Below, piece by piece: positions 17,296 through 61,566 of a stretch of DNA of 64,000 nucleotides. How positions within the stretch are numbered: position 1 is the first letter of the stretch; every line of letters begins with the position of its first letter. The DNA is from Saprospiraceae bacterium. GTDB taxonomy: Bacteria > Bacteroidota > Bacteroidia > Chitinophagales > Saprospiraceae. Made by a program: the position numbers and the translations under genes. Where the stretch lies: assembly GCA_041392765.1 (NCBI GenBank), contig JAWKLL010000021.1, positions 4,542 through 68,541 on the forward strand, in the 5' to 3' direction. The notes beneath the pieces are model-generated. The model had not been told where the DNA came from and searched no databases. It was given only the letters and a program-made list of their open reading frames with translations.

Positions 17296-17298
17296 TAG

Positions 17299-17425
17299 GC
17301 TAACGAAATAAACTGTACAATTTTTCTAAAAATTCGCTAATATTTCCTAAACAATTCACTTACAGTCAATGGTTTAGGAAATAGATTGTAAATCAAAAAT
17401 TGTACAATTTTTTCCCACCCCATAT
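17299..17425. repeat. Palindromic interspersed repeat, family D (copy D2)
   Basis: acgaaataaactgtacaattttt ... aaaaattgtacaattttttccc. It is homologous to 21226-21375 and lies immediately 3' of the YfhO stop. Confidence 0.7.
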
Positions 17426-17545
17426 ACAAACTTGCCATCGAGATCGCACATTTCGCACTCCCAATAGCTTATAGGGATCACTCATATACACATTTTCCAC
17501 ATATACACTTTTTGCACTTTTCGCACCCCCAATAGCTATCGAGAT
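17426..17545. repeat. Tandem array of family C units (about 20-nt palindrome plus about 35-nt linker)
   Basis: Degenerate palindromes are gccatcgagatcgc, ctcccaatagcttatagggatc and cccccaatagctatcgagatc. They are separated by catatacacattttccacatatacac-type linkers. A reverse-oriented relative lies at 58570-58690. Confidence 0.65.
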
Positions 17546-18875: not shown

Positions 18876-19023
18876 ATCCAGCAAATTTTGACCCGATTTA
18901 TTTTTGCAACAGGGCTGTGTAAATAATACCTACGCGCTTGGCGGTTTTGCGAAAGAATCTATAAGCCAGTTTTCAATGTAGTAATCCTTTTTCAAAAGGA
19001 GTTTACACCCATTACGAACCGCA

Positions 19024-19796
19024 TCAAAGCATGGTAAGTCCAAGGCGACCCAAAAAACCAAAAAAGATAAGGGCGTTTAGATGCAGATCCGCTATTACTT
19101 TATCGCGTCCCGCTAAAGAGACGTAAAAAACCAATCCACCGAAAGATATTCTTTTTACCACGTGATATATTACCATTTGGGGTTCATATCCTATGGCATG
19201 GCCGTCTTTGCGAATCAGTTTTTGTAACTCCGTTTCTTCTCCATACCCTGCCTGTTGACCCTTCATTCCTATATCAACATTAAACCCGCCGTAATGCTTC
19301 AGCAAGTGTTTGTTCACACAAAAACACCACCTGTAACATAACAAATGATTAGGCAACTAGTCAACTGGCGATAGTGTAGCACATTGCTTGCATAAGTATC
19401 TTTATACCAGTGAGGTTTGCCATAAAGGTACCAAGGGTAAAAAACGCCTCCGAAAATCTGATAATCCGATTTTTGGATAACATCCAAGGTTTTCTCAACC
19501 AAATCCTCTTTCGCTTTAGCATCATCATCGAGGTAAAGAATCCAGTCTGTGCTCGCCTCGTGCATGGCTCTGTTTCTGGCATAACTCAACCCTTGGTTCG
19601 TTTCCAAAATCACCCTAAAATGGGTAAAGTTCTCCGCAAAAGATTGCGCACAAGCCTGCGTTTGATCTGGCGAGTTGTTATCAATTACCAATAACTCGAA
19701 CACATCGGATGAGACTGTTTGCCGCGTCAAAGCAGCTAACGCGTGCTTTAAAAGTTCAGCCCTGTTGTATGTACATATTGCAATAGTCAACTTCAT
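19024..19796 (-). pseudogene. GT2 glycosyltransferase with a frameshift near 19314-19356
   Basis: MKLTIAICTYNRAELLKHAL..LVIDNNSPDQT..YLDDDA gives GT2 signatures. The C-terminal part is in ORF 19024-19356. Confidence 0.75.
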
Positions 19797-34579: not shown

Positions 34580-35179
34580 CTAACGGATAAAATCCAATTC
34601 GTCCATATCATCGAGTTGAACCATGATGGTAGGGCGAGCCTCCACTGTTTCTTTGGGCCGATAGCGGGAAACATAGTCAACTGCTTCGATGATGTCCGAG
34701 CGAACTCTTCCGAAATGATTAGGCCAAGGGGCGCCCTTGAAGTGAGCTAATGCCACTGCCAATGGGCGGTTCAGATGAGCGATTAGATCCCGGCAGTACA
34801 AGTCATGCACGATACGCACTGCTACACGTCCATCTGGTGTACAAACAGAAAGTGGTAGCGAATCAGTTGGTTCGGTAACAACGGTAAGGGGGCGTTTGTG
34901 GTAATGGAGGAGGGTTTCAAAACGCGGATGCAAGCGAGGGAAATAGTGCTTGAGCATCTCCAGGGAATCAAAAAGCACTTCAAAAGGGGTGTGCAGTGTG
35001 GGCTGCTTAATCCTTTTGAGTCTTTCTAATGCCACAGGATCATCGGCAGCACAAGCAATATACCAGAGCGCATCGGCTTGCAGCAGTACCAGTCCTTCTT
35101 GATCGAGCATGGCCGCAGCACCTTCCAGATCGTAGCGTTGAATCATAAAACCTGCAGCTTGAGTAGTTGTCATGAGCAT
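34580..35179 (-). CDS. YrdC/Sua5-family L-threonylcarbamoyladenylate synthase-like protein
   Basis: YrdC-domain pattern: ..LVLLQADALWYIACAADDPVALERLKRIK.. and ..RIVHD... The start is uncertain and could be the Met at 35179, 35173 or 35146. Confidence 0.65.
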   Translation of the reverse strand: MLMTTTQAAGFMIQRYDLEGAAAMLDQEGLVLLQADALWYIACAADDPVALERLKRIKQPTLHTPFEVLFDSLEMLKHYFPRLHPRFETLLHYHKRPLTVVTEPTDSLPLSVCTPDGRVAVRIVHDLYCRDLIAHLNRPLAVALAHFKGAPWPNHFGRVRSDIIEAVDYVSRYRPKETVEARPTIMVQLDDMDELDFIR

Positions 35180-35357
35180 AAGTAGTGTAGTTTGAAACCG
35201 GATTTCCCGGCTCGAATAACCATTGAGCAAGCCCCAGCCAAGCCTACCTGCGACAAGCTGACAATAACTGGGGTAATCTTAATAACCTACCAAAACGTTA
35301 CATTTTGGCAAAATCTTGTGATCCACAAACATTGGTTTACCCAACGTTGTAGATAAC

Positions 35358-35533
35358 TTAGAGTATGTCTAAAATTCCCTCAATTAGCTGTCCGATAGCT
35401 ATCGGGAGACAATTTTTCCTGCTCTGCGTTGGAAATGCTCGCCGATGCTTTCGGCATCGACTGCGCTTTCCGCCTTGATCAGAACAAAATTTGCTCGCTT
35501 TCACTCAATCAGAGAACTTTAGACATACTCTTA
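35358..35533. repeat. MITE-like interspersed repeat, family B (copy B1)
   Basis: Imperfect 28-bp terminal inverted repeats (ttagagtatgtctaaaattccctcaatt / ..tcaatcagagaactttagacatactctta). The core aaatgctcgccgatgctttcggcatcgact is shared with 48762-48914. It carries an inserted family C palindrome, tccgatagctatcggga. Confidence 0.8.
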
Positions 35534-35729
35534 AAATGTCGCTTTGTTTTACGAACCTGAAAAACGAACCCTACCGTTTACAATTAACCACTATATTAGT
35601 GCGCTATTAGGGCTAACGGTACGTTGTGTCTTTGGGATGGGAACTGGCTTCCAACCAGCCTACGCGAGATTGATTTGGTTATATGAACATTCTTTAGCGC
35701 GTATGTATTGTTTTGTTAACTTTAAAAAA

Positions 35730-38000
35730 ATGGATCGCTTGAAAAATATAAATCGCACCGCTATCTTGGTCTTATTCAAAATGCTGCTCTTACTCGTCCT
35801 GCCAGAGATGGGAAAGGCAGCTCACCTCATTGGGGGTGAGGTGACTTATGAGTGTATGGGGTATAATGATGCTACCAACAGTAATGACTACGTGTTCACC
35901 TTTAACATCTACCGAGATTGCCAAAGCGGTGGTTCTCAATTTGACAACCCCAACTTCTCCGTTCAAATGTTAGTCACAATTTACCAAGGCAGTAGTTTTT
36001 ATGACGGATACAACTTGGGGTTTCCTGTCATAACTCCTATCGACTTGGAAGAAAACATTAACAACCCTTGTATCAATATTCCCGACAACATTTGTGTAGA
36101 ACAAGGACGATATACTTTAGCGGTATCCCTACCTGTATCAACCAATCCTATCACATTGTCTATCAACGCTGCTGTAGAAACAATACCATCACCAACATTC
36201 TGAACCCGCAATCGGCAGGTAATACTTACACCATCGAAGTAACCCCGCAGGCACAACAACTGTGTAATAGCAGCCCCAATTTCGATGCCTACCCTTCCAG
36301 TGTCATCTGTGCAGGAGAAACATTTAACTATGATTTTTCGGCTGTTGATGCCGATGGCGACCAGATCGTGTATGAATTGTGTGCTCCTTTCTTGGGTGGT
36401 GGCAATACAGGTTCTCAAGGCGCACCCGATGGTGTAGCTCCCAATCCAGACCTACCTCCGCCTTATGATGAAGTAATTTTCCTGAAAGTATAATTACACA
36501 GCCAGTTCCCCATTGGGCAGTAATGCCAATTTTTCTATTGACCCACAAACTGGTATCATGTCAGGTACCCCTCATTTTGGGGCAATTTGTAGTAGGGGTC
36601 TGTGTTTCTGAATATAGAAACGGGGTATTATTGAGTACCATCAGGCAGGACTTCCAGTTTAATGTAACGACTTGCGAAATTACTTTTGCCGATGTACAAC
36701 ATGACGAAGTGGCACCTTCTGGGCAATTGGTGTTGAATACCTGTGGCAACACCGCCATTACTATCAATAATCTTTCAGAAGACGAAGCAGATATTGACGG
36801 CTACTATTGGGAATTTAATGTTGACGGCGCAACGGTTACCGCCAATACCCGCGATTTCACCTTTGCTTTTCCATGGCACGGGTGTTTATGACGGACGTAT
36901 GATTATCAACCCCAATTCGGCAGGATGCACGGATACGGCTTTGCTGCAAGTCAATATTTTCAGAATTGTACAGTGATTTCAGCTTTGCGTACGACACCTG
37001 CGTAGCGAAGTACCATCTTTTGAAGAACTAGCGACCACCGAAGCAGGCCAGCAAATTACTGCTTATAGTTGGGATTTTGGAGACGGGGATATTTCCGCTG
37101 AAAGCAATCCGCTGCACTTATTCTCCTCGCCGGGAAACTACACCGTTCAGCTTACCATTACCGACGAAAACGGATGCGAAGACACCCATCCTTTTACCTC
37201 CCCTATTTTCCCGTGCCCTCGCTCATTGTCGTTTCACCTGATGCCTTCCAAGGATGCGCTCCTGCTGATATATTTTTCAACAACCGCAGCACCCCTATCA
37301 ATGAATCCTATACGTTTGAGTGGCGATTTGGTGATGGTGGCACAGGTGATGCCCTCAGCCCCACTCACACCTACACAAATATAGGTGTTTATGATGTTTA
37401 TCTTTCCATTACCAGCCCTATTGGTTGCATGACGGATACCACTTTTTTGGCATTAATAGAAATAGAGCCTGCTCCCATAGCTGGTTTTACTACCTCCCCG
37501 ATATGCTTGACAACTTCCAGCCTACGGTACAGGTAACAGACGAATCCATTGATGCGGCTTTCACTTATTACACTTTCAACAACGAAGCCACCAGCACTGT
37601 CAGAAATCCTACTTATTCGTTCAGGGATACGGGGCTGGTGTTCATTACCAAATTGCCGTTCATGCCAGTGGTTGTATCGATAGCCTCACCCGTTATATAG
37701 ATATCGTCCCTACCATCACGCTTTTTTTCCTAACATACCTTCACGCCCAACGGGGATGGTATTAATGACCTGTTTAAACCCAAAGGCTACCTTGAAGGTT
37801 ATAGCGATTATCAAATCAAAGTCTGGAATCGGTGGGGCGAACCCGTCTATACAGGCAACGACATTTTAGATGGCTGGAATGGCCAAAAAAATAATAATGG
37901 ACAAAATCAGCCGTCAGGTGTTTACTTATACGAAGCCAGCATTATCGAACCACGTGGCGAAGTGCGTTTGTTAAAAGGACAAATCATGCTGATCAGGTAA
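35730..38000 (+). pseudogene. PKD-repeat surface protein with a type B T9SS (gliding-motility-associated) C-terminal domain; at least 6 frame changes
   Basis: The ATG at 35730 gives a signal peptide, then AAHLIGGEVTYECMG..FNIYRDC. PKD units are present (WDFGDGDIS.., WRFGDGGTGDALSPTHTYTNIGVYDVYL). The end is ..FTPNGDGINDLFKPKG..KVWNRWGEPVY..GVYLYEASI..LLKGQIMLIR*, with the stop at 37998-38000. Confidence 0.7.
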
Positions 38001-38010
38001 TCTTTATACT

Positions 38011-40254
38011 ATGCGATTTTACATCCTCATCCCTTTGATATTTTTTTAACAGCACCTACCTTGCTTTCCGCAAGACACATCGTAGGTGGTACTATGTCGT
38101 ACCGATGCTTAGGCAACGACAACTACGATTTACCCTCCGGGTATATCGTGATTGCAACTGTACAGGGTGTGCCGAGTTCGACCCATTAGCAGAAATTGGC
38201 GTGTATCGGTGCAATTCGTCAGGCAATTGCTTGGGGCAGTCCCAAAATCAGCCATTCAGAGAGGTAAGCGTACCTCTCTTGTCCTCGTTATCCATCGAAG
38301 AACCAGACTACCCGTGCCTCGTTCCACCTGATGTATGCGGGGAAGAAGGGCTTTATATTTTTACCATGAATTTTGCCTCCGATCGCAGGATAGTTATTTC
38401 GTTTCTTACCAACGATGCTGCCGCAATGAAACCATCGACAACCTCATCAATCCCGATGATGTAGGTGCCACTTATAGCGTAGAGATTACCCCAGTCGCTC
38501 AATCGCTATGTAATAGCAGTCCTTCTTTTGACACTTACCCACCTATCATTATTTGCAATAACGAACCCCTCCTATACGACCATTCTGCTTCCGACCCCGA
38601 TGGCGACCAGTTGGTCTATGAATTTTGCCCCATCATCATTGGAGGCGACAACAATTTGGATTTACTCATCTACAATACCTGCGATGGTGACTATCCTTCT
38701 CCTGCTTGCCCACCTGTATGGGAATGCATTTTTCAAGCCCCCAACTACACCGCTACCGCTCCTATGGGTGGCGACCCCCTCATACAGATAGACCTAATAC
38801 GGGCATTATTACGGGGCGGCCTATTCTGCAAGGTCAGTTTGTAGTAGGGGTTTGTGTTTCAGAATAAGAAATGGGCTACTACTAAGTCGGATATACCGAG
38901 ATTTTCAGTTCAATGTAGCCAACTGTGACCCAACCGTTGTAGCAGATGTGGCAGAAGACGTGCAAGTAAGCGCACAGAATTCATCATCAATTCTTGTGGC
39001 AATCTCACTATTGACTTCGTCAACCAAAGCTACCAGCAAAACTTTATCGAAAACTATCGCTGGACATTCGATATGGGAAATGGACAAACCCGACGGTAAA
39101 CGAATGGTCGCCCAGCATCACCTTTATAGGGGTTGGCACCTACGAAGGTCAATTGGTGCTTAACGAAAACACCAATTGCGGAGATACGGCCACCATAATC
39201 GTCAATCTGTATCCGGAAATTGAGGCGGATTTTTCGTTTGTCTATGATACCTGTGTGGCCGATGTAGTCACCTTCACAGATTTATCCCAGACGGGTGCCT
39301 GTTGCCTAACCGGATGGGATTGGGCGTTTGGGGATGGTCAACAAAGCACCCAACAAAATCCCATTCATTTATACAACATTCCGGGAAGTTTGCCTGTCAC
39401 GCTTACCGTTAGAGATACTAATCAATGCGAGGATCAGATCACCCGGCTACTTGATTATTTCCCCGTGCCAGCGCTTATCGTCATCGCGCCCAGTGAAGTG
39501 CTTGCTTGCGAACCCGCCTCCATATTCTTCGACAACCTTTCCTTTCCCATCGATAGTACCTACGATATTATTTGGACATTCGGCGATGGCGCAAGTAGTA
39601 CCGTCATTAGCCCTACACACATTTACGATACGCCGGGCACCTACACCGTGCAGGTGGCTATTACCTCACCCATAGGCTGCAAGAAACCGATACCACGTTC
39701 AACGATCTTGTGACTATCTTACCATCACCGGACGCGGGGTTCACATATTTACCAGAAAAACCAAGTAATTTATTGCCAGAAGTTCAATTTACAGATGCCT
39801 CTTCAGGTGCTATCCGCTGGAATTGGGATTTTGGCACTACGGCTACCAGTAACTTCCCCAGCCCTACCTAACTTTTCCTGATACAGGGTTGTACTTAGTG
39901 CAACAGATCGTATTCCACCCTAGTGGCTGCACCGATACCGCTACTGCCTTAATTGACATCTTCCCCGATATACGGTATTTTATTCCCAACGCCTTTACGC
40001 CCAACGGAGACGGGAGTAATGATTTTTTTGTGGGTAAAGGAATTGTCAGTGGTATTCAGGACTTCCATTTCCGTATATGGAATCGTTGGGGAGAACCCGT
40101 TTTTGAAACAGAAGACCCTTTCAGCGGTTGGAATGGAAGAAAAAACAACACCGGGCAAGAAATGCCTGCCGGGGTTTATTTAGTGGTTGTCACTTTCCGA
40201 GACCCAAGGGGCGAACCTTATGAAATCAAAGGTTTTGCTACGCTCGTTAGATAA
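38011..40254 (+). pseudogene. Tandem paralog of the PKD/type-B-CTD surface protein; at least 6 frame changes
   Basis: The ATG at 38011 is followed by ..RHIVGGTMSYRCLGNDNYDFTLRVYRDC. PKD units are present (WDWAFGDGQQS.., WTFGDGASSTVISPTHIYDTPGTYTV). The intact C-terminal ORF reads ..FTPNGDGSNDFFVGKG..RIWNRWGEPVF..GVYLVVVTF..FATLVR*. Confidence 0.7.
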
Positions 40255-40291
40255 TTTTTCACAAAAAAGTTTTTTTTCCAACAAAAAACTT

Positions 40292-40299
40292 TACCTTTG
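40292..40299 (+). promoter_or_regulatory. Bacteroidota -7 box (TAccTTTG) upstream of rplS
   Basis: Matches TAnnTTTG and ends 23 nt before the rplS ATG. Confidence 0.5.
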
Positions 40300-40322
40300 C
40301 ACCGCTAAAAAAAGGACAAGCA

Positions 40323-40674
40323 ATGGATGCCATTAAATTTGTACACGAACAGTTGACTCCTTCCCGCGGCCTACCTAAGTTCCGCGCTGGAGACAATGTA
40401 ATTGTGAGTTATAAAATCATCGAGGGTGACAAGGAACGCGTTCAGGATTTCCGTGGAGACGTGATCCAGATCAAAGGCGAGGGAGCGACCCGCACATTCA
40501 CCGTTCGTAAAATCTCCAATGGAGTGGGTGTAGAACGTATTTTCCCGTTCTCTTCCCCCAATATTGTTGAGGTTAAAGTTACCAAATCAGGTAAAGTACG
40601 CCAGTGCGCGTTTGTTTTACTTACGCGAGCGTGTGGGCAAGAAAGCACGTATCAAAGAGCGTCGTACGCTGTAA
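40323..40674 (+). pseudogene. rplS: 50S ribosomal protein L19 with a single-nucleotide frameshift near 40596
   Basis: MDAIKFVHEQL..FRAGDNV.V..KI.EG.KERVQ.F.G.VI.. is canonical L19. After ..KSGKVR the correct continuation ARLFYLRERVGKKARIKERRTL* is in the +1 frame, with the stop at 40672-40674. Confidence 0.9.
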
Positions 40675-40696
40675 TATTGCGACTGCGATAGATATT

Positions 40697-40738
40697 AAAT
40701 CCCGAATCTTGTTAGTTCCAAGGTTCGGGATTTTTTTA
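40697..40738 (+). terminator. Rho-independent terminator of rplS
   Basis: aaatcccgaa(tc)ttg .. caaggttcgggat followed by T7. Confidence 0.8.
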
Positions 40739-40828
40739 TGTACATTTCTTCAGAAGGCTTGTTTTCAGTGCTTTCAAGTTTTTTTTTGTTAAAATGCACA
40801 CTTTTTCTCACATTCTAAGTTATTCAAT

Positions 40829-40836
40829 TATATTTG
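40829..40836 (+). promoter_or_regulatory. Bacteroidota -7 box (TAtaTTTG) upstream of the repeat-containing lipoprotein gene
   Basis: An exact TAnnTTTG, 52 nt before the ATG at 40889. Confidence 0.45.
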
Positions 40837-40888
40837 CAAGGTAAATGCTTTCTTTTCTCTCAATTTTTTAACTCTCAAATTTTTAATT

Positions 40889-41069
40889 ATGAAAAAGCTT
40901 TCTTTTCTTTTCTTTTCTTTTCTTTTCTTTTCTTTTCTTTTCTTTTCTAACATTTTCTTGTGAAAAAGAAGAAGTTTCGGGTAATCAACCTGATGTTTCA
41001 GAGGACTTTCAGGTATTCTTGGGGAAAACAGATATAAATCTGTCAATTCATCCATTAATGCCAATATAG
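40889..41069 (+). pseudogene. Small putative lipoprotein gene, out of frame as sequenced (candidate phase-variable)
   Basis: The ATG frame gives MKKLSFLFFSFLFFSFLFFSNIFL*. The +1 frame continues ..LTFSCEKEEVSGNQPDVSEDFQVFLGKTDINLSIHPLMPI*, with a lipobox-like FSC. One extra 5-nt unit would fuse the two. Confidence 0.5.
40898..40948 (+). repeat. Pentanucleotide microsatellite (CTTTT)9 with partial flanking units
   Basis: C residues fall at 40898, 40902, 40907 ... 40947, spaced exactly 5 nt apart from 40902 to 40947. The tract lies inside the signal-peptide coding region that starts at the ATG at 40889. Confidence 0.95.
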
Positions 41070-41230
41070 AAGACGGAATTTTATCGTTCAAAGACGTTTC
41101 TGATTAATGGTCATTTTGTAGCACACTTAACTAAGACAAGGTTTTCATTGGCGAGTTTAACGCATAAACTACTATTTAGTCAATGCGTTTTGTGATATGC
41201 CTATTATTAATATATTGACAATAACAATAT

Positions 41231-42177
41231 ATGCAAACAAGGTTCATTGCTTATATAATCGCACTGTTTATCCTAACTATTAGTTGTGATAACCGCGAGT
41301 CGTTGTTATTAGTAAATGTACCAGCCGAAGCCCCCTACTTTTTGTAGAAGCTTTCATATCGGATGGTACAAAACCCACCATCAAACTACAGAAAACACGC
41401 CCTGTCAATGGTGAATTTATAGCCCCCACTGAAGTAGATGTCACAGATGCGCAAATCACCCTCTTTCAAGATGGTCAGCCTTTTGTTAACTTTTTCTTTC
41501 AAAGTGACACCACAAAAGCGTATGAAACAGTAACCGATTTTTTGGGTCATATTGATACAACTAAAATATTAGAAAGCGTAAAAAACTATTATACAACCGA
41601 TACTCCTCTATCGTTACAAAAAAATGCCCTTTACCACATAGAGATAACAGCTAATGGCTATCCCCGTGTCATTAGTGAAGACATCCTTTTTTTAGATGAA
41701 ATCGCTATTGAGGATGCTCAGGTTGATAGATTAGGATATATTGCAGAGAGTACTTATTTGCTATCCTCCGTTTCATTTTTACTGAGAAAGGAGGGGCGTG
41801 CGACGAGGCAACAAAGCCTGTTTTCTATTTATCCGTGGTATAAATCACCTGAACTCCAAGAAGAAACCAGAAAACTCATAAGACGTTCATTTGGTCAAAA
41901 TATCCCTCCTTTGGAGAATGCGGTTATCCGAGTTAACTATCAAAACATCTATTTACATGATGTGTATGATAGTTCAGGTCTTGCATTTCCCCATGAGGGG
42001 GCTTGCGTACTGGTAGAAACACTGAAAGAGGAGGCATTGGAATACAATGAAGCATTACTTGAAAACTCGGGATATATAGGAGGATTTTTTCCACCCAATC
42101 CGTACTTCCCCCATAACGTACAGGGTGGATATGGGATTTTTTCCATTGTAGAAAGAGATAGTATCAGGTTATATTGA
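41231..42177 (+). pseudogene. DUF4249-like lipoprotein (TBDR partner) with a frameshift near 41340
   Basis: The ATG at 41231 gives MQTRFIAYIIALFILTISCDN (lipobox). After a frame change it continues ..VEAFISDGTKPTIKLQKTRPVNG.. into ORF 41542-42177. A CarboxypepD_reg-type TBDR lies immediately downstream. Confidence 0.6.
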
Positions 42178-42251: not shown

Positions 42252-44576
42252 ATGAAAAAGGCTGCCATCCCCCTGCTCTTATTTGTATCTTTTGTGGAAA
42301 TACTTGCTGCACAGCGTTTCACTTGCCAAGGCTATATCCGCAATGTATTGACAGATGCACCTTTATCTTTTGCCATGATCAGCAATGGAGAAGAAGCCGT
42401 TTATGCCGATGAAATGGGGCATTATCAGTTTTCCTTTTTCTCAATGGAAAGGGATACATTATCATATACGATGCTGGGTTTTTCTCCCATGCAGTTGATA
42501 TGGCCGTATGACAGCCTCCAGATGTCGCTTGTACATTTGACACCAAATGTTGAATTACCTGCCATTATTGTACGCGCACCTGCTTCAGTAGCACCAGGAG
42601 GAAGTATCATGGCAGTAGATATTGCTACAATAAAACGCCTCCCTACGCTCGGAGGTGAAATTGATTATATCAAGGGTTTAACGCTGCTACCAGGTATAAG
42701 CGCAGGTGTGGAAGGAACGGCCAACCTTAATATCCGTGGCGGAGAGCCTGAACAGACGCAGTTGCTCATCGATGGTAGTCCTGTGTACAATGCCAATCAT
42801 TTGGGAGGCTTCCTTTCCGCTATTCCTCCGGGTGCGGTAAAACAGATTACGGCTTACAAAGGAGGTGTTCCAGCCCGCTTAGGCGGCAGGTTGAGTGGTG
42901 TTATTGATGTACAATTAAAGGAGAGCATACCAGAAAAAGCCGCCACTGACCTATTAATCGGCACTGGCACTGCAGGTATCACTTTTCATACCCCTGTGAA
43001 TAAAAATATTTCAATACTGGCTTCGGGTAGGTTTGCATACCCTTCTCTGCTCATAGACCTTCTCAATGCAAGTACATTTGAAAAAGGTGTTAGTGGAGAT
43101 AAAACAAACGTTTATGTGAACGATGTTATAATCAAAATTGTAAATCGCCCATCGGAACGCTTAACAACCTCTTTTACATGGTTTCAAAGTAGCGATAAAG
43201 GTTACATACAGGAATCATCAGGAAATGTTATACAGGAGAATTTTGACAAAAAAAACCAAACAGCTTCATTTAGGATGGGATACAGCCTTAGCAATGCTTG
43301 GCATCTAAAAGCTAATGCCTATTTCTCGAACTTCAAGTATCATTATCAGCGAGAAGAGGATATTGTTTACCGTAGGGATTCAATTGTTCATTATAGTAGA
43401 GAGGCTACCCATTCCCGCATTAGGGACTTTGGACTTCGGGTTGCTTTGCAACGCCAGTTTAGCAACACATTCTTCTTTGAAACTGGAACAGATTACGTTT
43501 ATCACTCATTTAGTGCTTCCAACCAAGGGTCGGCTGCTTTTTCTAATGAATTATTCAATCAGTTCAGCAATGACAATAACGCTTTGGAACACGCCTATTT
43601 CGCTTCTTTGCAAGCTCAAATACTACAAAACAAATTTGTCGTGCATGGAGGTATGCGCCTAAGCACCTTGGGTACAGGAAAAGCGACACCTTGGTACGCG
43701 GAACCGAGATTGCGTTTGGAATACAAATTTTCAGGAGGGTTGAGCATCAATGCCAATGTAGAACGACACACGCAATACCTGCATCGGCTTCAGGCCAACG
43801 GCAGTTTATTCCCAAATGAGGTATGGGTTTTAGCCAACAGCAAAGCTATACCGTCAACATCCGATCAATGGTCATTAGGGATAAGTCAACGATCCAATAA
43901 AGTGGAATGGTATGTGGAACTCTTCCACAAACAGCTTCGCAACTTGATCCAGCTTCAATTTGAAGCGGGGAACATCTACGGTTTTGAACGAGACTGGACT
44001 GATCTGATTTATCGAGATGGAAAAGGAAGTGCCAAAGGTGCTGAGTTCTTTTTCACTGGAAGCTTTAAAAAGTGGAAGCCTTCACTGGCCTACACACTAA
44101 TGTCTTCTACCCGCAGATTTGCAGATATTAACAATGGCAATGAGTTCCCTTTCATTTTCGACCGCAGGCACGACATCAATGCGAGCCTAACCTTTACTCC
44201 AAGCTCTAAATGGGAATATAGCGTATTATTTGTTTATCAGACTGGAAATGCCGCCACTATCCCCATTGCCATTGGTAATGGCGTACTCCTATACAATGAT
44301 ATCAATGGGTTTAGAATGCCATCTTATCAGCGCTTAGATACAGGTATTACCAGAAACTGGGAGAAAAATGAAAAAAGAAAAGTCGGTAAATTTCTTAGAT
44401 TGTCCATTTACAATACGCTAAACAGGCTAAATGCACAGGAATTATCAGTACGTCCTGTAAGGAGAGAAGTCAAGAATCCAATTACTATGGTAGAGGAAAC
44501 TGAAACTTCTTGGCAATTGTATCAAGTTGGCTTCTTCCCTATCATCCCTGGTTTGACGTTCGGTATGAATTTTTAG
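42252..44576 (+). CDS. TonB-dependent receptor with an N-terminal CarboxypepD_reg-like domain
   Basis: Intact 774-aa ORF with a signal peptide. The plug motifs are LPGISAGVEGTANLNIRGGEPEQTQLLIDGSPVYN. The barrel has a terminal aromatic (..LTFGMNF*). Confidence 0.85.
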   Translation: MKKAAIPLLLFVSFVEILAAQRFTCQGYIRNVLTDAPLSFAMISNGEEAVYADEMGHYQFSFFSMERDTLSYTMLGFSPMQLIWPYDSLQMSLVHLTPNVELPAIIVRAPASVAPGGSIMAVDIATIKRLPTLGGEIDYIKGLTLLPGISAGVEGTANLNIRGGEPEQTQLLIDGSPVYNANHLGGFLSAIPPGAVKQITAYKGGVPARLGGRLSGVIDVQLKESIPEKAATDLLIGTGTAGITFHTPVNKNISILASGRFAYPSLLIDLLNASTFEKGVSGDKTNVYVNDVIIKIVNRPSERLTTSFTWFQSSDKGYIQESSGNVIQENFDKKNQTASFRMGYSLSNAWHLKANAYFSNFKYHYQREEDIVYRRDSIVHYSREATHSRIRDFGLRVALQRQFSNTFFFETGTDYVYHSFSASNQGSAAFSNELFNQFSNDNNALEHAYFASLQAQILQNKFVVHGGMRLSTLGTGKATPWYAEPRLRLEYKFSGGLSINANVERHTQYLHRLQANGSLFPNEVWVLANSKAIPSTSDQWSLGISQRSNKVEWYVELFHKQLRNLIQLQFEAGNIYGFERDWTDLIYRDGKGSAKGAEFFFTGSFKKWKPSLAYTLMSSTRRFADINNGNEFPFIFDRRHDINASLTFTPSSKWEYSVLFVYQTGNAATIPIAIGNGVLLYNDINGFRMPSYQRLDTGITRNWEKNEKRKVGKFLRLSIYNTLNRLNAQELSVRPVRREVKNPITMVEETETSWQLYQVGFFPIIPGLTFGMNF

Positions 44577-44889: not shown

Positions 44890-47800
44890 ATGAAGTCAAT
44901 CCACCACCTGTTTGCTACAGTTTCCCTCCTTGTGTTCATAAGCGTGACACACCTGTTTTCGCAGTCATGCAACACCTATATCGCCGACAACAAAATAGTT
45001 GGTGGCATGCACTTGCTCAAATCAACCAATACCACCTTGGTAGTGAGGGGCAATTATTCTTATGCCATCACGCTATCATCGGATGACAAAGGGATAACAG
45101 CTGCATTAGAATCCATAGGTGGAGAAGAATTCAATCAAGACGATGAAGTTATTTTCATGGATGCCAATCAAACGCGCCGGAGCTATCGCTTTGTAGGTAT
45201 GGGAGAAATACGGCAACAGGGTGGTATTCCTGTTTATACCAACGTTCTCCAATTAGATATGACGGCGCTTCAATGGTTTGCACAAAACAGTATCAACACC
45301 TTCTACCTCAAAAACAACCTCAGCAACCAGATGCGAAAATTCACTTTGCAGGATAATCGTCTGGCTGACTTTAGCAATATGTCTCGTTGTTTTTATGAGG
45401 TACTCGATCCCAACAAAGTGATTGACAAAGGAGAGGCGGGGCTATTAATTCCTTCAGCATCCGCAACAACGCGTACCACTTCTGCATCCGAAGCCAATAC
45501 CTCATTGTCGGTACCGCGCACCCAGTCCGCCCAGCCTACGACCGATCAGGAATTAGTTGATTTGCGCAAAGAATTAGCCGACACCAAAGCGCGTTTGCGG
45601 GCGGAAATTGAGGCGGAACGCAAACGGGCCGACCAAATCAAGAGCAACATTCAGGCCGAAGTAACAGCCGCACAAGAACAAGCAGCCAAGCAGAAGCAAG
45701 CAATCGCAGATGAAGTTTTACAGGCTCGCCAGCAGGCACAAGAAGTAGTAGCTGCCACCCAACAAGAATCTGCCACCGAAGTACAAGCCGCCCGTGAAAG
45801 AGCACAATCCGAAATTGCCAGCATCCAAGGGGATGTGCAACAAGCACGAGAGCGTGCGAACGCTGCCGTACAGCAGGCGCAGTTGGAATCAGCTGAAGCC
45901 GTGAAAAATGCACGGGATAATGCCGCTCGCGAGTTGGAGCAAATCCGCACCAAGTTGGAAGAAGCTAAGACTACATACGCGGATGAAGTAGCCAGCGCAA
46001 GGGAAACCTCCAACGCGGAGTTGTCGCGCATACGGGAAGAAACCGCCCGTACCATTCAGCAAGCGCGGGAACAAGCCAAGACTGAACAAAACCGCACCGT
46101 AGAAGAAGTTGTCACCCAAAAGCAGACCGCCAGCCAACAAATTCTACAGATACAAGAGCAAACTGCCGAAGAAGTGGCTCAAATACGGGAAAATGCCGTA
46201 TTAGAAAAAGAGAAAATCGCTTTTGAAGTGGCAGAAGCGCGACGTAAAGCCGCTGAACAAAAGGCCTTGGTTGAACAGGAAAACGCCAATGAAATAGCCG
46301 CGCTGCGCGAAACCGTAGCGAAAGAAAAAGAAGTGGCAGCCGTAGCAGTAGCGGCCACTAAAGAACGGGCGGCTGAAGAAATTGGCGCGATACAGGAAGG
46401 CGTGGCGCAAGAAAAAGACAGGGCATCCGATGCCGTAGCCGCTTCCCGAGAAGCAAGTGCTAATGCCATTGCTGCCGATCAGGCAAAAGCCGCCGAAGAA
46501 CAACAACGCGCCGCTGCATCGGTGCAATCAGCAAGGGAAAAAGCCCAACAAACGATTTCGCAAATCAATGAGGAAGAAGCCAATAAAGTGGCCGAAGCAC
46601 GTAGCCATGCTGCCGCTGAAAAAAGCAAAATAGCGGAAGAAGTTCAAGCAGCTCGGCAGCGTGCCGCCGAAGAAATGCAGCGGATTCAGCAAGAAACCCA
46701 GCAGCAAGTAGCAGTAGCTAAATCTAAACAAGAAGAAATATTGCAAGCTGCTGCCGCCGAAGTAGAAGCGGCTCGTAAACGGGCTGAAGCGGAAATACAA
46801 GCCGCGCGAGAAGCTGCTCAACAACAAGTAGCCAGCACACAGGAACAAGCGGGTGCCGCCAAAGCCGCTTATGCAGAGGAGGTAGCCGCCGCTAAAGCCC
46901 AAGCAGAAACGAGGAGAAAGGAAATTGAGGCTGCTGCTGCAGCAGCTATTCAGGATGCTAAAGAAAAAGAAGCAGCGACCCTCAATAGCTCTGCTGCCGA
47001 GATTCAACAGGCAAGGGAAAAAGCAGCACAACAACTCACTGCCGAGCGCGAAAAAGTAGCGCAGGAAATCGCCGCAGCTCGCCAAAAAGCTTCGCAAGAG
47101 CAGGAACTCGCAGCTACCTCCGTGGCAGAAGCCCGCCGCTCGAGTGCTGAACAGATAGCCACTATTCGCCAACAAGAAGCCGAACAAGTACGCACCACTG
47201 CTGAAAATGCCGCTAACGAAAGACAGCGCATAGCCAGCGAGCTTGCCAACGAGCGGCAGCGCGTTGAGCAAGAAAAAGCAAGCATAAGGGAGCAACTTGT
47301 CAACGAGGTAAAAGAAGCTCGCGAAAACGCCGCCCGCGAAAAAGAAAAACTAGCCGTGGAGGTACTCAATGCGCGGCAGCAAGCCAGTCAAAATGTGCAG
47401 CAGGCACGGGAAAATGAAGCCCAAGCCATAGCCACGGCGCAAAGGGAAGCCAACGCCCGCATTTCAACCGCTAAAACAGCAGCCGATGAAGCTGAAGCAA
47501 CGTCTGCCGAGCGTATCACTACGGCACGAACCAGAGCCGACAAGGAAATGGAAGTACTCCGCGATCGGGTGCGGCAAGAGTTAGAGACGAGCCGCAAAGA
47601 AACCACCGAGAAAAAAGCGGCTTATAACGCCGAGGCAGAAGCTGAACGGCTGAGATTGCAGGAGGAATTGGCCACTGCTCGCCAAGAATCATCCGATGCG
47701 GTGTATGAAGCACGCCGACAGGCCAATGAACAAATCACGCAAATAAAAGCAGACAATGCCGCCAGCATAGCCGAAGAAAAAGCCAAAGCCGATGCCGCTA

Positions 47801-47928
47801 AGCAAAAGCTACAGGAAGAAACTACCTCCGCACAGCAACGCCTTAGTGAGCTTCAAACTCAAATCCGAGCTGCAGAAGAGAAACTAAAGCAGTTACAGCA
47901 ACAAACCGGAAAGGATAATAAAGATTAA
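44890..47928 (+). CDS. Secreted protein with an approximately 230-aa N-terminal domain plus approximately 780 aa of A/E/Q/R-rich repetitive coiled coil
   Basis: Intact 1012-aa ORF. The signal peptide is MKSIHHLFATVSLLVFISVTHLFSQ. From about residue 230 onward it is an uninterrupted helical low-complexity region with a recurring x-E-[VI]-x-x-A-R-x-x-A-x motif. Confidence 0.8.
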   Translation: MKSIHHLFATVSLLVFISVTHLFSQSCNTYIADNKIVGGMHLLKSTNTTLVVRGNYSYAITLSSDDKGITAALESIGGEEFNQDDEVIFMDANQTRRSYRFVGMGEIRQQGGIPVYTNVLQLDMTALQWFAQNSINTFYLKNNLSNQMRKFTLQDNRLADFSNMSRCFYEVLDPNKVIDKGEAGLLIPSASATTRTTSASEANTSLSVPRTQSAQPTTDQELVDLRKELADTKARLRAEIEAERKRADQIKSNIQAEVTAAQEQAAKQKQAIADEVLQARQQAQEVVAATQQESATEVQAARERAQSEIASIQGDVQQARERANAAVQQAQLESAEAVKNARDNAARELEQIRTKLEEAKTTYADEVASARETSNAELSRIREETARTIQQAREQAKTEQNRTVEEVVTQKQTASQQILQIQEQTAEEVAQIRENAVLEKEKIAFEVAEARRKAAEQKALVEQENANEIAALRETVAKEKEVAAVAVAATKERAAEEIGAIQEGVAQEKDRASDAVAASREASANAIAADQAKAAEEQQRAAASVQSAREKAQQTISQINEEEANKVAEARSHAAAEKSKIAEEVQAARQRAAEEMQRIQQETQQQVAVAKSKQEEILQAAAAEVEAARKRAEAEIQAAREAAQQQVASTQEQAGAAKAAYAEEVAAAKAQAETRRKEIEAAAAAAIQDAKEKEAATLNSSAAEIQQAREKAAQQLTAEREKVAQEIAAARQKASQEQELAATSVAEARRSSAEQIATIRQQEAEQVRTTAENAANERQRIASELANERQRVEQEKASIREQLVNEVKEARENAAREKEKLAVEVLNARQQASQNVQQARENEAQAIATAQREANARISTAKTAADEAEATSAERITTARTRADKEMEVLRDRVRQELETSRKETTEKKAAYNAEAEAERLRLQEELATARQESSDAVYEARRQANEQITQIKADNAASIAEEKAKADAAKQKLQEETTSAQQRLSELQTQIRAAEEKLKQLQQQTGKDNKD

Positions 47929-56950: not shown

Positions 56951-57175
56951 GTTATCGGACGACTTAATAGTTGTGGTTCTTTGACACAAAGTGTGGCATT
57001 AATGGCTAGCTATCTCGGCAAAAGGCCGGGAGCAAGTTGTGCAACAGTGGCCGCGATAGCGGACAGACGCTTGCGACCGTAGGAAGCTGGCCGAGCGAAT
57101 AACCCGAGCTGGCGGAGACGTAGCGCCCGAAGGGCTGCCACAGGAATTGTCAAAGAACCATAGTTGTCCAATAAC
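56951..57175. repeat. MITE-like element with a GC-rich core (family E)
   Basis: The terminal inverted repeats are gttatcggac..agttgtggttctttgaca (56951-56986) and tgtcaaagaaccatagttgtccaataac (57148-57175). The core is GC-rich and hairpin-dense. The left terminus motif recurs at 21423-21436. Confidence 0.65.
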
Positions 57176-57199
57176 TGCGGTCATTATTCTTTCCGTCCC

Positions 57200-58565
57200 T
57201 TATGCTTTCATTTCCGTATAATAGTGGAAGTAGTAAGGGATCGTCTCAATGCCTTTGTAAAATTAAACAACCCGTAGTATTCGTGGGAGAGTGGATGGCA
57301 TCGCTGTCCAAGCCAAAACCCATGAGTACACTTTTCACCTAATACTTTTTCAAAAGAGGCTACAATAGGAATCGCTACGCCTTCCCTCTTGAGGATGAGT
57401 GCCTTATAGTAGCTTCCATTGCTTTATGTACGCTTGATATTCCGGCGTATCGGTTGGTGTCACTACTGGCTCGCCACCGTGGTGTGGGCGCACTTCTACT
57501 TTACTTCAGCAGGAGCGGCCTGCTCAAAGTAATTTTGAACAACTCAGTGATCTTATCTGGGTGTTGGTTGGGTACCAAACGCATACTGATTTTGGCAAAA
57601 GCTTTGGATGGCAATACCGTTTTAGAGCCTTCGCCTGTATATACTCCCCAAATACCGTTTACATCTAAGGTAGGGCGTATGCTGGTGCGTTCCAAGGTTG
57701 TAAAACCAGCTTCCCCTCTGACGGCATCAATACCTAAATCCTTTTGGTAATTGCCTAAATGGAAGGGAGCTTTGTTCATTTCCGCACGCTCTACATCGGA
57801 AACATCTTGCACATCATCATAAAAACCGGGAATGGTAATGTGCTTGTTTCATCCATCATACTCAATCATCTCGCAAAGCACGTTGATCGGGTTGCCAACG
57901 GCTCCTCCATATACGCCTGAGTGAGGAATAACGATTGACACATATACTTCCACTTCCACATAGCTAAGCCCCTTAACCCCGTAGTAATGCTGGGGGTATC
58001 ATTAGCAATAATAGAGAGGTGTCTGAAATCAAGATAACATCGCAGGCTAGTTTGTCCTTGTGCTCCACCAAAAACTTACCCAAATGAGCAGAACCTGTTT
58101 CTTCTTCTCCTTCGATCATGAACTTGATGTACAAGGAAGAGTATTTGTAGCCATCATAGCTTCAAAAGCCTTCACATTCATAACATCTGCCACTTTATCA
58201 TCGCAAGAACCACACGCGCAAAAATAGCTCCATCAGGGTGCAGCTCGGTCTTTTTAATCACAGGCTCGAAGTACTATCTAATGACACAGGATCGGCAGGT
58301 TGCACATCGTAATGACCATAAACCATGATAGTTGTTAAGGTATCGGAGATTTTTTTCTCACCGAAGACGATGGGATGGCCTGCAATTGGGAACAATCTCT
58401 ACTGTGTCGGCACCTGCCTTGCGTAGATGATTAGCTACGCGCTTCATTGTGCGTTGAACATCCGCTTTGGCGGTCGGCTTTGACACTCCGGAATGCGCAA
58501 TAAATCAAAAAGTTCTTCTAAGAATGGTCTTTGTTGTCCTGTATATATTGTTGTGTGGCTTGCAT
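57200..58565 (-). pseudogene. M20-family dipeptidase, heavily frameshifted (at least 8 frame changes)
   Basis: The ATG at 58565 gives MQATQQYIQDNK..FLEELFDLLRIPSVS-like. The middle reads ..MVYGHYDVQPADP.. and ..IEGEEETGS... ORF 57501-57812 reads ..ERTSIRPTLDVNGIWGVYTGEGSKTVLPSKAFAKISMRLVPNQ... The end is ..YKGIETIPYYFHYYTEMKA*, with the stop at 57200-57202. Confidence 0.7.
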
Positions 58566-58569
58566 GATG

Positions 58570-58690
58570 TAAGGAATGTTGGATCCCGATAGCTATCGGG
58601 GTGAAATGTGGAAAATGTAGAATCCCGATAACTATCAGGGTGCTAAAGATGTATATGTGCCAAAAGTTGACATTTCGCACATATACACTT
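58570..58690. repeat. Tandem family C units (palindrome plus linker), reverse orientation relative to 17426-17545
   Basis: gatcccgatagctatcggggtgaaatgtggaaaatgtagaatcccgataactatcagggtg..catttcgcacatatacac. Confidence 0.65.
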
Positions 58691-58697
58691 GCAACAT

Positions 58698-59618
58698 TTA
58701 TTTCAAGCTATCATAAACATCCATGACAGATTTGACAGCTTTGGAGGATGCATCCATCAGGGCTTGTTCGTCTGCATTGAGGTTTACGGTAATGAGTTGT
58801 TCGATACCGTTTTTACTATTTGACGGGTACACCTAAGTAAACATCTTGCTGGTTATACTCACCGTTTAGGAGTACGCAACAAGGAAAACACGCTTTTCAT
58901 TGCGCACGATAGACTCCACCATCATTAACGCAACGGCGCAAGGGAGCATACCAAGCGGAAGTGCCCATGAGCTTTACCTAATTCTCCACCACCAGATTTG
59001 GTGCGTTCTACGATAATTGAGGTTTCTTCGTCAATCATTTCAGTAACAGGAATGCCTGCCACCGTAGTAACGAGGCAGTGGCACCATCGGTAGTCGCCAT
59101 GACCGCCCAAAATAGCAAAGCTTGAATGTCCTTAGGAGAAACATCTAAAGCCGTAGCCAAAAATGCGCGATAACGGCGGTATCTAAGATACCGCACCATG
59201 CCAAATGCGGCTTCTGTCCATACCAGATGCTTCGTGGCGGCATAAGTCATCACATCCAATGGGTTTGAAACCACGATAATGATGGGGTTGGCGGGTGTTC
59301 CATAATTGATTTGGTGACACTCTGCAATCTTAGCGTTGGTAGTGATCAAATCATCGCGGCTCATGCCGGGTTTGCGGGGAATACCAGCTGTGACCACGAT
59401 ATCGGAGTTGGCGGTATCGGCATAATTATCAGTACCTACAACACGGGTGCTGTAATAATCGATGAGGGCTTGCTGCCCAAGTATCGAGTGCTTTACCGCG
59501 ATGCAAAATCACCCTGAATATCCAACAGAACGATTTCGTTGACTACATCCTTTGTGTGCCAATACATTGGCTACCGTAGCACCTACGTTGCCAGCACCAC
59601 AACTGTTACCTTGCTCAT
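58698..59618 (-). pseudogene. mdh: Malate dehydrogenase (LDH-like, NAD-dependent), heavily frameshifted
   Basis: The ATG at 59618 gives MSKVTVVGAGNVGAT-like after a frame correction. Fragments include ..GIPRKPGMSRDDL...N..I.. (ORF 59035-59397) and ..VVSNPLDVMTY... The end is ..KAVKSVMDVYDSLK*, with the stop at 58698-58700. Confidence 0.75.
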
Positions 59619-59659
59619 AATTTTAGTTTGGTTTTTGTCGGCTAAATAATCTATTATTA

Positions 59660-59818
59660 GAGGTTACTTGTAGGATAATTTTGTATGCGCTTCCAATGTC
59701 TTGCCATGCTGCGTCGAAGAACCATTTTCTTAGCTATGGCTAAGCGAAAGAACCTTTTCCTTGCCTAACGTAAAAATCTTATTGTGGAATCCCTATACAA
59801 ATTCCCCGTGCGTATCTC
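59660..59818. repeat. Interspersed repeat, family A (copy A3, long form)
   Basis: gaggttacttgtaggataatttt ... cttagctatggctaag ... aaattccccgtgcgtatctc. It is collinear with 8491-8652 and lies 42 nt upstream of the mdh ATG. Confidence 0.8.
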
Positions 59819-60044
59819 TATTGCTGAACCCGGAGAAACAAGGAAAGTTCATAGGCTACCGCTTGTTTAATCATTGCAAGCTCAATAAGGGAGCGAATAA
59901 TTTGTAGTTTGCGCGGCAAATGTAGCGATTTTTTCGGGTTTTGTTCAACTAAAGACCAAAGAATTACGGTTTTAAAACAGACCTTCACCTTATATTTTTG
60001 CTATTTTTGCCCACACTTTACTTTTAAGAAAACAAATTGCAGAC

Positions 60045-61566
60045 ATGCGTAAATTTTTAATGCTTTTTTCACTGATGATAGCAACAACGCTTCAAAGCAC
60101 AGACATTTTCATGTGTGTGGCACACACCCGCTAGCGAAGGCTTTGATGGACAGATGGACAGATTGTTGAGAGCATGGTACAAGCGCCAGCGGTGCCATGC
60201 CGAACGCAACACAATATACGTACCCATCAAATTCCATTTAGGTGCTAAAAACGACGGAAGCGGCAGGGTAACAGAAGGTAATGTTTTGGGTCGATTACAT
60301 TGCGATTGAACGAAGACTACCTCCCCTACGACATTCAATTCTTTTTAGCTGACAACGCTTTCAATTACATCAACAATACGACTTTTACGAAAACCATGGT
60401 ACTACTCAAAACGGCATTATGGCTATTGAAGGAAGGTGCTCGTGCGATGCGAACGTGTATATCGTAGAAAACATAAACCAAAGTGGAATTGGCGGTGGTT
60501 CTGCATTGATACTTGGCGTATTATAGCATTCCTCATGACTGGATTGTCATTACAAAACATATATACGCAAAAATGGCCACCCCACTTAGCCACGAAAGAT
60601 AGGTCACTTCTTTCTGCTCACACCTTCAACGGTTGGGGAGTCCGAAGCATTCAATACTGTAGATGTAAATGCCCCCGTTTCCGGCTTTACAGGCAGCATA
60701 CTGACGGAACGCCAAAACGGCACCAACTGCGAATCAGCAGGCGACATGATGCAATACACGCCTGACTACGGCAATGGTTTACGGAATTGCCAAACACTTG
60801 GTTGCGATTTCCATTGAATGTGCTAGACCCACAGGGTACACAAATCAACCCCGACGAACGTAATTATATGAGCTACTTCCTCAACTGCACGGATGATGAA
60901 TATTTTTCTCCGACCAGCAGTATTGCAGCCATATTATCGGATTGGAACTCCTTCCAACGCAACTACTTACGCTTAGATCATGTTCCTGCAATATTTGCCT
61001 ATCACCGAAGAAGCAGTTTCCCGTTTACCCCATTGAAGGTGAAAATATGGATACAACGCTGTCAATTTCAATTGGACTCCGTGCAAATGCGCACACTTAC
61101 CTGTTCAAATATCCGTGCCTCCACTTTTACCATCAACCCTATTCGAAGAATAGTGTATGGCAACAGCGTTGTGTTGGATGATTTGGAGGCCAACAGAACC
61201 TACTACTGGAGGGTACGCCCATTCAATGCTCATTTTACTTGTATCCCTATGAGTAGCACTACTTCCTTTACTACGGGAACTACTGTTGCAACTCAAGCTC
61301 CATCATTTGTAGAGTCTTTTAGGGTTTCCCCCAATCCCGTTCCCAGCAACAGCCAACTTTCTGTTGAATTGGTTACGGAACAAGCCTTTACCGCTAGTGT
61401 GCAATTACTGGATGTGACGGGCAAGGCTATTTCAACTTACCCTATGCAGGTTGGTATTGGACAACAGTACCTTACCATCCCTACTGGTGAACTGGCTAAA
61501 GGAGTCTATCTGTTGCGTTTGGTAACCGAAAAAGGCAGCATTACAGAAAAAGTAGTCGTCAACTGA
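60045..61566 (+). pseudogene. M43-like (pappalysin/ulilysin-type) zinc metalloprotease paralog with a T9SS tail; many frameshifts
   Basis: The ATG at 60045 gives the signal MRKFLMLFSLMIATTLQ. Fragments include VPIKFHLGAKNDGSGRVTEGNVL and a broken H-E-x-G-H-F-F-S-L-x-H-T-F site around 60590-60640. The intact C-terminal ORF 60787-61566 ends in the tail ..VSPNPVPS..GVYLLRLVT... Confidence 0.65.

Follow-up and report, generated by a model that had tools for sequence, protein, structure and literature searches.

The locus raises the question of whether a perfect pentanucleotide repeat, placed between the start codon and the lipobox of a putative surface lipoprotein gene, is a slipped-strand switch of expression and, if so, whether the copy at hand can still switch anything. 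The repeat, (TTTCT)10, occupies 50 nt of the window (the whole 64-kb stretch of DNA that was analyzed) and was found by TRF (10.0 copies of TTTCT, 100% matches, score of 100) and by direct scan. It is the sole array with ≥3 copies detected by TRF in the window, all others having <3. The preliminary description placed the repeat at 40898 to 40948, beginning 9 nt past the start codon. The perfect pentanucleotide repeat itself was borne out; the exact run is 40899 to 40948, begins 7 nt past the ATG at 40889 to 40891 and leaves the C at 40898 outside. In the CTTTT register, it comprises nine full units (40902 to 40946). Two properties of contingency loci are present: a long perfect SSR in the 5′ coding region and a unit that is not a multiple of three and shifts the frame of the gene body relative to the start. 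The coordinates of the features discussed are collected in Table 1.

Table 1. Features of the repeat tract and its flanks, in window coordinates
Feature	Coordinates	Strand	Basis
rplS gene for ribosomal protein L19, with a frameshift as sequenced (extra base near 40597)	40323..40674	+	Pfam L19, translations
Intrinsic-terminator-like hairpin and T run closing the rplS unit	40697..40733	+	15-pair stem with 6 GC pairs, then T run
TATATTTG, candidate Bacteroidota-type −7 box, 52 nt 5′ of the ATG	40829..40836	+	Position only
15-nt direct repeat in the leader, CTCTCAAATTTTTAA twice, right before the ATG	40857..40886	+	TRF, 93% matches
Start codon (ATG; MKK...) of the lipoprotein stub	40889..40891	+	N-terminal pattern M-[KR]-x-L as in orthologues (MRYLF, MKYLF, MRFLG)
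(TTTCT)10 perfect microsatellite, homopyrimidine strand, encoding the hydrophobic core of the signal peptide	40899..40948	+	TRF and direct scan
Lipobox L-T-F-S-C (Cys codon 40959-40961), +1 frame relative to the ATG, EKEE next	40947..40961	+	Translation; profile alignment positions 3-39
TGA of the ATG frame as sequenced (OFF state)	40961..40963	+	Translation
G4A4 run, second frame change of the stub	41021..41028	+	Comparison with orthologue QGNRNISLSNTVLEATIQDGMLSF
Final conserved family piece, NANIEDGILSFKDVSD (profile to position 68 of 380), then TAA (41105-41107)	41045..41107	+	tblastn, hmmsearch
Gene for a DUF4249-family lipoprotein, with a frameshift near 41335-41345 as sequenced	41231..42177	+	tblastn, Pfam
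TonB-dependent receptor (TBDR) gene, Plug domain, intact	42252..44576	+	Pfam, orthologues

The anatomy first proposed for the locus, i.e., a start codon, a hydrophobic core encoded by the repeat and a lipobox out of frame with the start, is exact in the translations. The ATG-frame peptide is MKKLSFLFFSFLFFSFLFFSNIFL, ending at the TGA at 40961 to 40963, and the +1 frame past the lipobox reads EKEEVSGNQPDVSEDFQVFLGK... (in full, ...FLTFSCEKEEVSGNQPDVSEDFQVFLGKTDINLSIHPLMPI) up to a TAG at 41067 to 41069. As the start and the Cys codon are 70 nt apart in the sequenced state, 5, 8, 11 or 14 units yield one continuous lipoprotein precursor, with signal peptides of 15, 20, 25 and 30 residues, respectively, and all other unit counts lead to a stop at 40948 to 40950 or 40961 to 40963. 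The stop of the ATG frame, the lipobox in the +1 frame and the recovery of the frame through gain of one unit or loss of two were therefore all correctly described from the outset. In the ON frame, the predicted product has the makeup of a Bacteroidota surface lipoprotein: MKK, a hydrophobic core (LSFLFF..), LTFS-C and EKEE. The longest ORF of the interval, an 87-aa ORF on the minus strand (40828 to 41091) that reads (EKKRK)n across the tract, was rejected because the homologous lipobox and the family match lie on the plus strand; it is judged to be a shadow ORF of the purine-rich complementary strand.

On homology, the window ORF is assigned as the N terminus of a family of 350- to 400-aa lipoproteins of Saprospiraceae-like Bacteroidota. 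Its SCEKEE... aligned to SCEKEQ, SCEKAD and SCSKED of relatives, and the frame-0 peptide NANIEDGILSFKDVSD (41045 to 41098) aligned by tblastn to orthologue ATVEDGMLSFADVD and ATIQDGMLSFEDVE. A family profile of 21 members and 380 positions (alignment A2), run against all six frames of the window by unfiltered hmmsearch, matched only at positions 3 to 39 in the lipobox frame and 42 to 68 in frame 0 (E values of 3e-4 and 1e-3; frame-0 match spanning 40994 to 41104), which is the N-terminal 18% of the family, and the rest of the profile was absent from the six frames of the 64-kb window. A 1-nt insertion at the G4A4 run restores ...FLGENRYKSVNSSINANIEDGILSFKDVSD, colinear with orthologue QGNRNISLSNTVLEATIQDGMLSF, and homology stops at the TAA at 41105 to 41107. 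No full-length family match, including the C-terminal D-I-T-V-G-C motif, was obtained for the window copy. An exhaustive profile search returned 102 family representatives, nearly all of 330 to 430 aa, which makes the window copy a 5′ stub with about 18% of the gene left. With the stub, a second frameshift and an early stop, toggling of the tract is unable to switch a full-length protein; the intact ON-frame ORF of a functional contingency locus is found in the orthologues and is lacking in the window copy.

Neither Pfam nor NCBIfam provides a name for the lipoprotein family, and five full-length members gave no significant Pfam match and none to an Opa family. The structural model of the family (alignment A2, P0121; pLDDT of 84, pTM of 0.83) predicts an N-terminal helical part and a long beta-sandwich. 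In the PDB, the model is matched best by the DUF4848 protein BT3222 (4lb8; Foldseek E value of 8.6e-8, probability of 1.0), with low TM-scores of 0.25 and 0.33; arrestin-like beta-sandwiches rank next, with weak scores. The surface-export signal of Bacteroidota lipoproteins is given as K-(D/E)2 following the lipobox Cys (PMC5080379). By sequence, the CEKEE of the stub fits this definition, and the lipoprotein family is therefore probably surface exposed.

Reading frames in this part of the window have to be interpreted with the quality of the assembly in mind. Frameshifts were counted from Pfam splits, translations and a maximum-ORF profile; a 3-periodic Markov frame scan was dropped as too noisy. 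The maximum-ORF profile revealed three patches without long ORFs (~15000 to 19300, ~35000 to 41400 and ~57000 to 61000), about 21 kb apart, separated by clean ORFs of 2.3 to 4.4 kb. Genes in the patches are broken solely by frame changes, and the peptides between the breaks are well conserved. The malate dehydrogenase gene (mdh; minus strand, 58.6 to 59.7 kb) has at least 8 frame switches in about 1 kb, a YfhO-like gene is split into six pieces, and a PKD/CHU_C gene is split into many. In rplS, Pfam L19 positions 5 to 103 lie in frame 0 and positions 87 to 111 in the +1-frame ORF 40564 to 40674, and the extra base, an A near 40597, marks the local level of indel error. This pattern looks like uneven consensus quality (polishing or gap-filling) rather than biology, and findings based on frameshifts inside the three patches are suspect. 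As the (TTTCT)10 tract sits in the middle patch, which is dense in indels, no trust can be placed in its exact number of units, in the OFF state or in the G4A4 frameshift. One A fewer in ATGAAAAAGC already gives an in-frame MKSFLFF...LTFSC precursor, and rplS, the DUF4249 gene and the PKD/CHU_C gene are frameshifted in the same patch. The OFF state that the preliminary description read from the sequence is thus not to be relied upon.

The same deficiencies might be taken to mean that the gene is intact, with a working ON/OFF switch of a full-length protein, and that the truncation and the extra frameshifts are assembly artifacts. The frameshifted rplS beside the tract, the frameshifted mdh in a similar patch, the location of the stub frameshift at a G4A4 homopolymer, a typical consensus-error site, and the full length of the orthologues are in keeping with such an intact gene. 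The patches, however, show frame changes of the 1-nt type only and no kilobase-scale losses, whereas ~310 codons (roughly 0.9 kb) are missing here, the stop at 41105 to 41107 is followed after 123 nt by the DUF4249 ATG (41231), and no further part of the family profile occurs anywhere in the 64 kb; an intact gene is accordingly considered quite unlikely. Truncation through misassembly in a poor-quality patch is conceivable in principle, but the 0.9-kb loss is probably real, because a lesion of this type is unlike any other in the patches. A blastn-short comparison of the spacer (41060 to 41300) with the intergenic regions of relatives returned chance words only and did not place the deletion junction.

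Upstream, the strong terminator hairpin of rplS implies that the lipoprotein stub requires its own promoter. The −7 box candidate, put forward earlier as an exact match 52 nt before the ATG, is indeed exact but is not distinctive, as TAnnTTTG is not enriched in the window (58 occurrences versus 58.6 expected). A single match is therefore weak alone and unusable as independent evidence, its position, shortly past the rplS hairpin, being its sole support. From this box to 42532, no further exact TAnnTTTG was found on the plus strand. A T9 run lies at 40779 to 40787, 42 nt 5′ of the −7-like box.

Both genes of the DUF4249-TBDR pair reported directly downstream were confirmed by Pfam and by comparison with orthologues. 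The DUF4249 gene is read in two frames (41237 to 41332 and 41338 to 42171; E value of 5e-53, tblastn to orthologues), with a weak Pfam DUF4249 match. The best matches of the TBDR are metagenome proteins of 41 to 49% identity, with the same position in loci L001 to L004 of the relatives; the TBDR of Neolewinella antarctica has 32% identity to that of the window, and L005 and L017 carry a syntenic TBDR gene after DUF4249. An exact-protein lookup of the window TBDR found no record, and a GTDB genome scan with it found no close relative. Contigs of relatives have a DUF4249-type lipoprotein gene before the TBDR gene and, in most, a 350- to 400-aa lipoprotein gene before DUF4249. Relatives therefore do carry a conserved ORF at the position of the stub, the absence of which had been named as an indication of a noncoding microsatellite. 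When metagenomes and genomes were scanned with the family alignment, only 5 loci emerged, of which 4 were copies of a single allele, and a word-indexed protein search with the 21-member alignment gave only 5 proteins.

Duplications and unusual composition were also seen around these genes. In L003, a second DUF4249 copy, in two fragments (5824 to 6123 and 6480 to 6791), is flanked by the lipoprotein gene on one side and the intact DUF4249 gene on the other; this copy is either a decayed duplicate or the result of assembly frameshifts. In N. antarctica, two DUF4249 genes occur in tandem, both of them intact. The window encodes, at 44890 to 47928 (plus strand), a 1,012-aa protein with a signal peptide and ~800 E/A/Q/R-rich, coiled-coil-like residues, without a Pfam match. 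AT skew reaches 0.48 across 46 to 48 kb of the window.

An effect of the tract on the DUF4249-TBDR pair by polarity is possible, as a speculation. It could take the form of a switch acting through the leader ORF: the state of the tract would set how far ribosomes travel (to the stop at 40948 to 40950 or 40961 to 40963 versus that at 41067 to 41069) and would tune Rho-dependent polarity or mRNA stability for the pair, the stub being retained for this purpose. The promoter-like box, the start codon and the tract are all kept in the stub, no second exact TAnnTTTG box precedes the DUF4249 ATG on the plus strand, the stretch from the stub to DUF4249 is free of terminator-like sites, and the order of the genes and the short distances between them in relatives suggest a single operon. 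Yet the translated distance varies by only about 100 nt, with >160 nt left untranslated whatever the state, the match to the −7 box is not distinctive statistically, and DUF4249 is itself frameshifted as sequenced. Control of the downstream genes by such a leader is thus regarded as very unlikely.

The orthologues provide the test of whether the tract belongs to the family rather than to one damaged copy. Repeats were surveyed in seven lineages with DNA, including the window, with thresholds of ≥8 nt for mononucleotide, ≥10 nt for dinucleotide and ≥15 nt for pentanucleotide repeats, etc. In 7/7 lineages, the Cys codon of the lipobox is preceded by a repeat that starts ≤130 nt from it, and five different motifs are involved. 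Besides (TTTCT)10 in the window, these are C8, located in the leader, in L001, L002 and L012; (TC)11.5 in L003, (TC)6.5 in L014 and (TC)5.5 in L017; (AC)10 in L005 and L006, (AC)7 in L008 and (AC)5.5-T-(AC)5 in L007, L009, L010 and L013; T8 in L011; and C9 in N. antarctica (L015 and L016). The N terminus of family protein P0131, MKTNNSLFFLFLFLFFFSC, is suggestive of a T/C repeat of this kind. The remainder of the same loci, about 133 kb, contains 21 other such repeats, mostly A/T8, or ~1 per 6 kb, and the 5′ ends of the neighboring DUF4249 and TBDR genes have a repeat in 3/16 cases (7/7 lineages versus 3/16; hypergeometric P of about 5e-4).

Further repeats were observed in these loci: C8 in L003 (7985 to 7992), 9 nt before the TBDR ATG; (AAATGA)3 at the DUF4249 start of L005 (7308 to 7326); T8 in the DUF4249 signal peptide of L004 (7049 to 7056); and C7 in L003 (~4416 to 4422) versus C6 in L014, upstream of the lipoprotein ATG. 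The entire lipoprotein-DUF4249-TBDR cluster may be rich in repeats.

In alignments of close relatives (93 to 97% mean column identity), all indels between the start codon and the lipobox fall inside repeat tracts. Tract lengths across orthologue alleles are 20, 14 and 22 nt for (AC), 23 and 17 nt for (TC) and C7 versus C6; the length differences between L003 and L014 and between L005 and L008 are multiples of 6 nt. The comparison of tract lengths advocated in the preliminary description therefore yields tract-confined polymorphism in orthologue lineages, while the window tract itself is without a close relative (nearest TBDR, 49%).

Frame analysis showed that the alleles of L001, L003, L014, L005 and L008 are in frame and that those of the window, L011 (a partial contig), N. 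antarctica L015 and L017 are out of frame with no usable in-frame start; in L007-type alleles, only the long form is out of frame. One unit fewer would restore a precursor in two of these, as T7 would give MTNLSKVYFFILLAFTGAIIFTSC in L011 and C8 would give MFTPPTRRIAFAALLLCSVFFSC in N. antarctica. The deposited N. antarctica model (JAATJH010000002.1; L015, 4946 to 5015) starts at a GTG within the signal peptide (MFFSC...), and upstream of it lies an ATG followed by C9, from which C8 would complete a lipoprotein precursor; a probable phase-OFF gene is concealed by the annotation. The out-of-frame alleles of four orthologue lineages have bodies of at least 350 codons that are otherwise intact. 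An alternative in-frame ATG is present in the AC and TC lineages (MILFLL and MHTRY), and some AC and TC tracts may therefore be leader sequence or tolerated in-frame insertions. Varied motifs at one position, polymorphism restricted to the tract and intact OFF alleles are predicted by reversible switching and not by simple decay.

A neutral origin of the repeats, with no switching anywhere, would attribute them to mutation bias in T-rich signal-peptide DNA and would make the OFF alleles of a dispensable gene ordinary pseudogenes in the making, of which the window copy would be a more advanced example. T-rich signal peptides are inherently of low complexity, 5′ repeats also occur in the 3/16 neighboring secreted-protein genes, L003 contains the fragmented second DUF4249 copy, and the window copy is truncated, all of which agree with neutrality. 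Neutral T-rich bias does not account for repeats of five motifs within the same ~130-nt interval in 7/7 lineages, as (AC)n and poly-C encode no hydrophobic residues, and incipient pseudogenes would not be expected to retain OFF-allele bodies of at least 350 codons without an additional lesion. The dN/dS ratios of 0.35 to 0.43 bear on both sides: they are fairly relaxed, but the one ON-OFF pair in the comparison, L005-L007, has a ratio of 0.42, much like the ON-ON value of 0.36. Neutrality throughout the family is hence deemed unlikely.

The favored explanation, with a probability of roughly 0.55, is that a contingency-type switch of the family has the tract as its slipped-strand module and that the window copy is a remnant, most likely without function at the protein level. 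The switch would be a trait of the surface lipoprotein gene standing first in the lipoprotein-DUF4249-TonB receptor cluster of Saprospiraceae-like Bacteroidota; in this gene, a short unstable repeat separates the start codon from the lipobox cysteine. Slipped-strand mispairing, presumably at high frequency and reversibly, would alter the number of units during replication; as the unit length is not divisible by three, each gain or loss would join or separate the start codon and the lipoprotein body, and ON cells would export the lipoprotein, probably to the surface. In the window, the switch would be attached to a remnant of about the first 68 of ~380 codons, followed by a stop, and would at best gate the translation of a leader peptide of 50 to 75 aa. 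The phase-variation switch first suggested for this locus thus appears to hold in its design as a trait of the family, a repeat being present in 7/7 lineages, and is not supported for the window copy, an 18% stub with a second frameshift and an early stop. That this reflects conserved switching under selection, i.e., selection for mutability of a lipoprotein heading its module in free-living Saprospiraceae-like Bacteroidota, with the tract motif repeatedly reinvented at the start-to-lipobox position, is judged to be evenly balanced.

Among known systems, the design is closest in mechanism to the opa genes of Neisseria gonorrhoeae and N. meningitidis, in which the copy number of CTCTT coding repeats decides the frame of the mature protein (PMC13183285). 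Both have a pyrimidine-rich pentanucleotide repeat in the 5′ signal-sequence coding region that itself encodes the hydrophobic leader (PMC13183285). The likeness is one of mechanism only, with no relationship of sequence or fold to the window lipoprotein family: Opa proteins are beta-barrel outer membrane proteins, whereas the family here consists of lipoproteins with a predicted DUF4848-like beta-sandwich. Furthermore, opa is a multilocus antigen family, while the gene here is a single-copy gene in an uptake cluster, its host is a free-living environmental Bacteroidota and the window copy is truncated. H-DNA has been reported for opa repeats, and the homopyrimidine tract of the window could likewise form H-DNA.

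A second parallel is the haemoglobin receptor hpuAB of Neisseria, a TonB-dependent receptor system that is switched by a poly-G tract within the reading frame (PMC3786947). What the two share is that the reading frame of such a receptor system contains a repeat (PMC3786947). The likeness is closest for the poly-C alleles (C9 in N. antarctica and C8 in L001). The lipoprotein partner in the hpuAB system is HpuA, whose gene precedes hpuB. The differences are that the protein families are others, that a DUF4249 gene here lies between lipoprotein and receptor and that the motif varies by lineage.

Within the same phylum, phase variation in Bacteroides proceeds through invertible promoters and recombinase-driven inversion (PMC11868660). 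The likeness lies in the stochastic ON/OFF expression of surface and nutrient acquisition genes (PMC11868660), but there a site-specific recombinase inverts DNA, whereas here the repeat would slip, with no invertase or inverted repeats. BT3222, the best structural match of the family model, is also a Bacteroidota lipoprotein; it differs in that the TM-scores are low, there is no sequence-level Pfam match and no phase variation has been described for it. A literature search for repeat-based switching found no such report for Saprospiraceae or for other free-living members of the Bacteroidota.

Contingency loci are a textbook feature of host-adapted pathogens (Neisseria, Haemophilus and Campylobacter). 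The Opa-like contingency design is probably new for free-living Bacteroidota, with the window copy as a probably defunct remnant, and, if true, would constitute an SSR-type phase-variable system in a phylum known mainly for phase variation based on inversion. The cultured type strain of N. antarctica (GCA_011927835.1), with its C9 tract in the OFF state, would then be a directly testable model. Genes switched by such repeats would be systematically misannotated, as exemplified by the spurious GTG start in N. antarctica, and are easily mistaken for assembly errors, as in the window. Unstable repeats that differ from lineage to lineage but share one position in all lineages examined, with several alleles out of frame, suggest that aquatic bacteria hedge their bets over a surface component of an uptake system, which could be driven by phage or grazer pressure or by fluctuating substrates.
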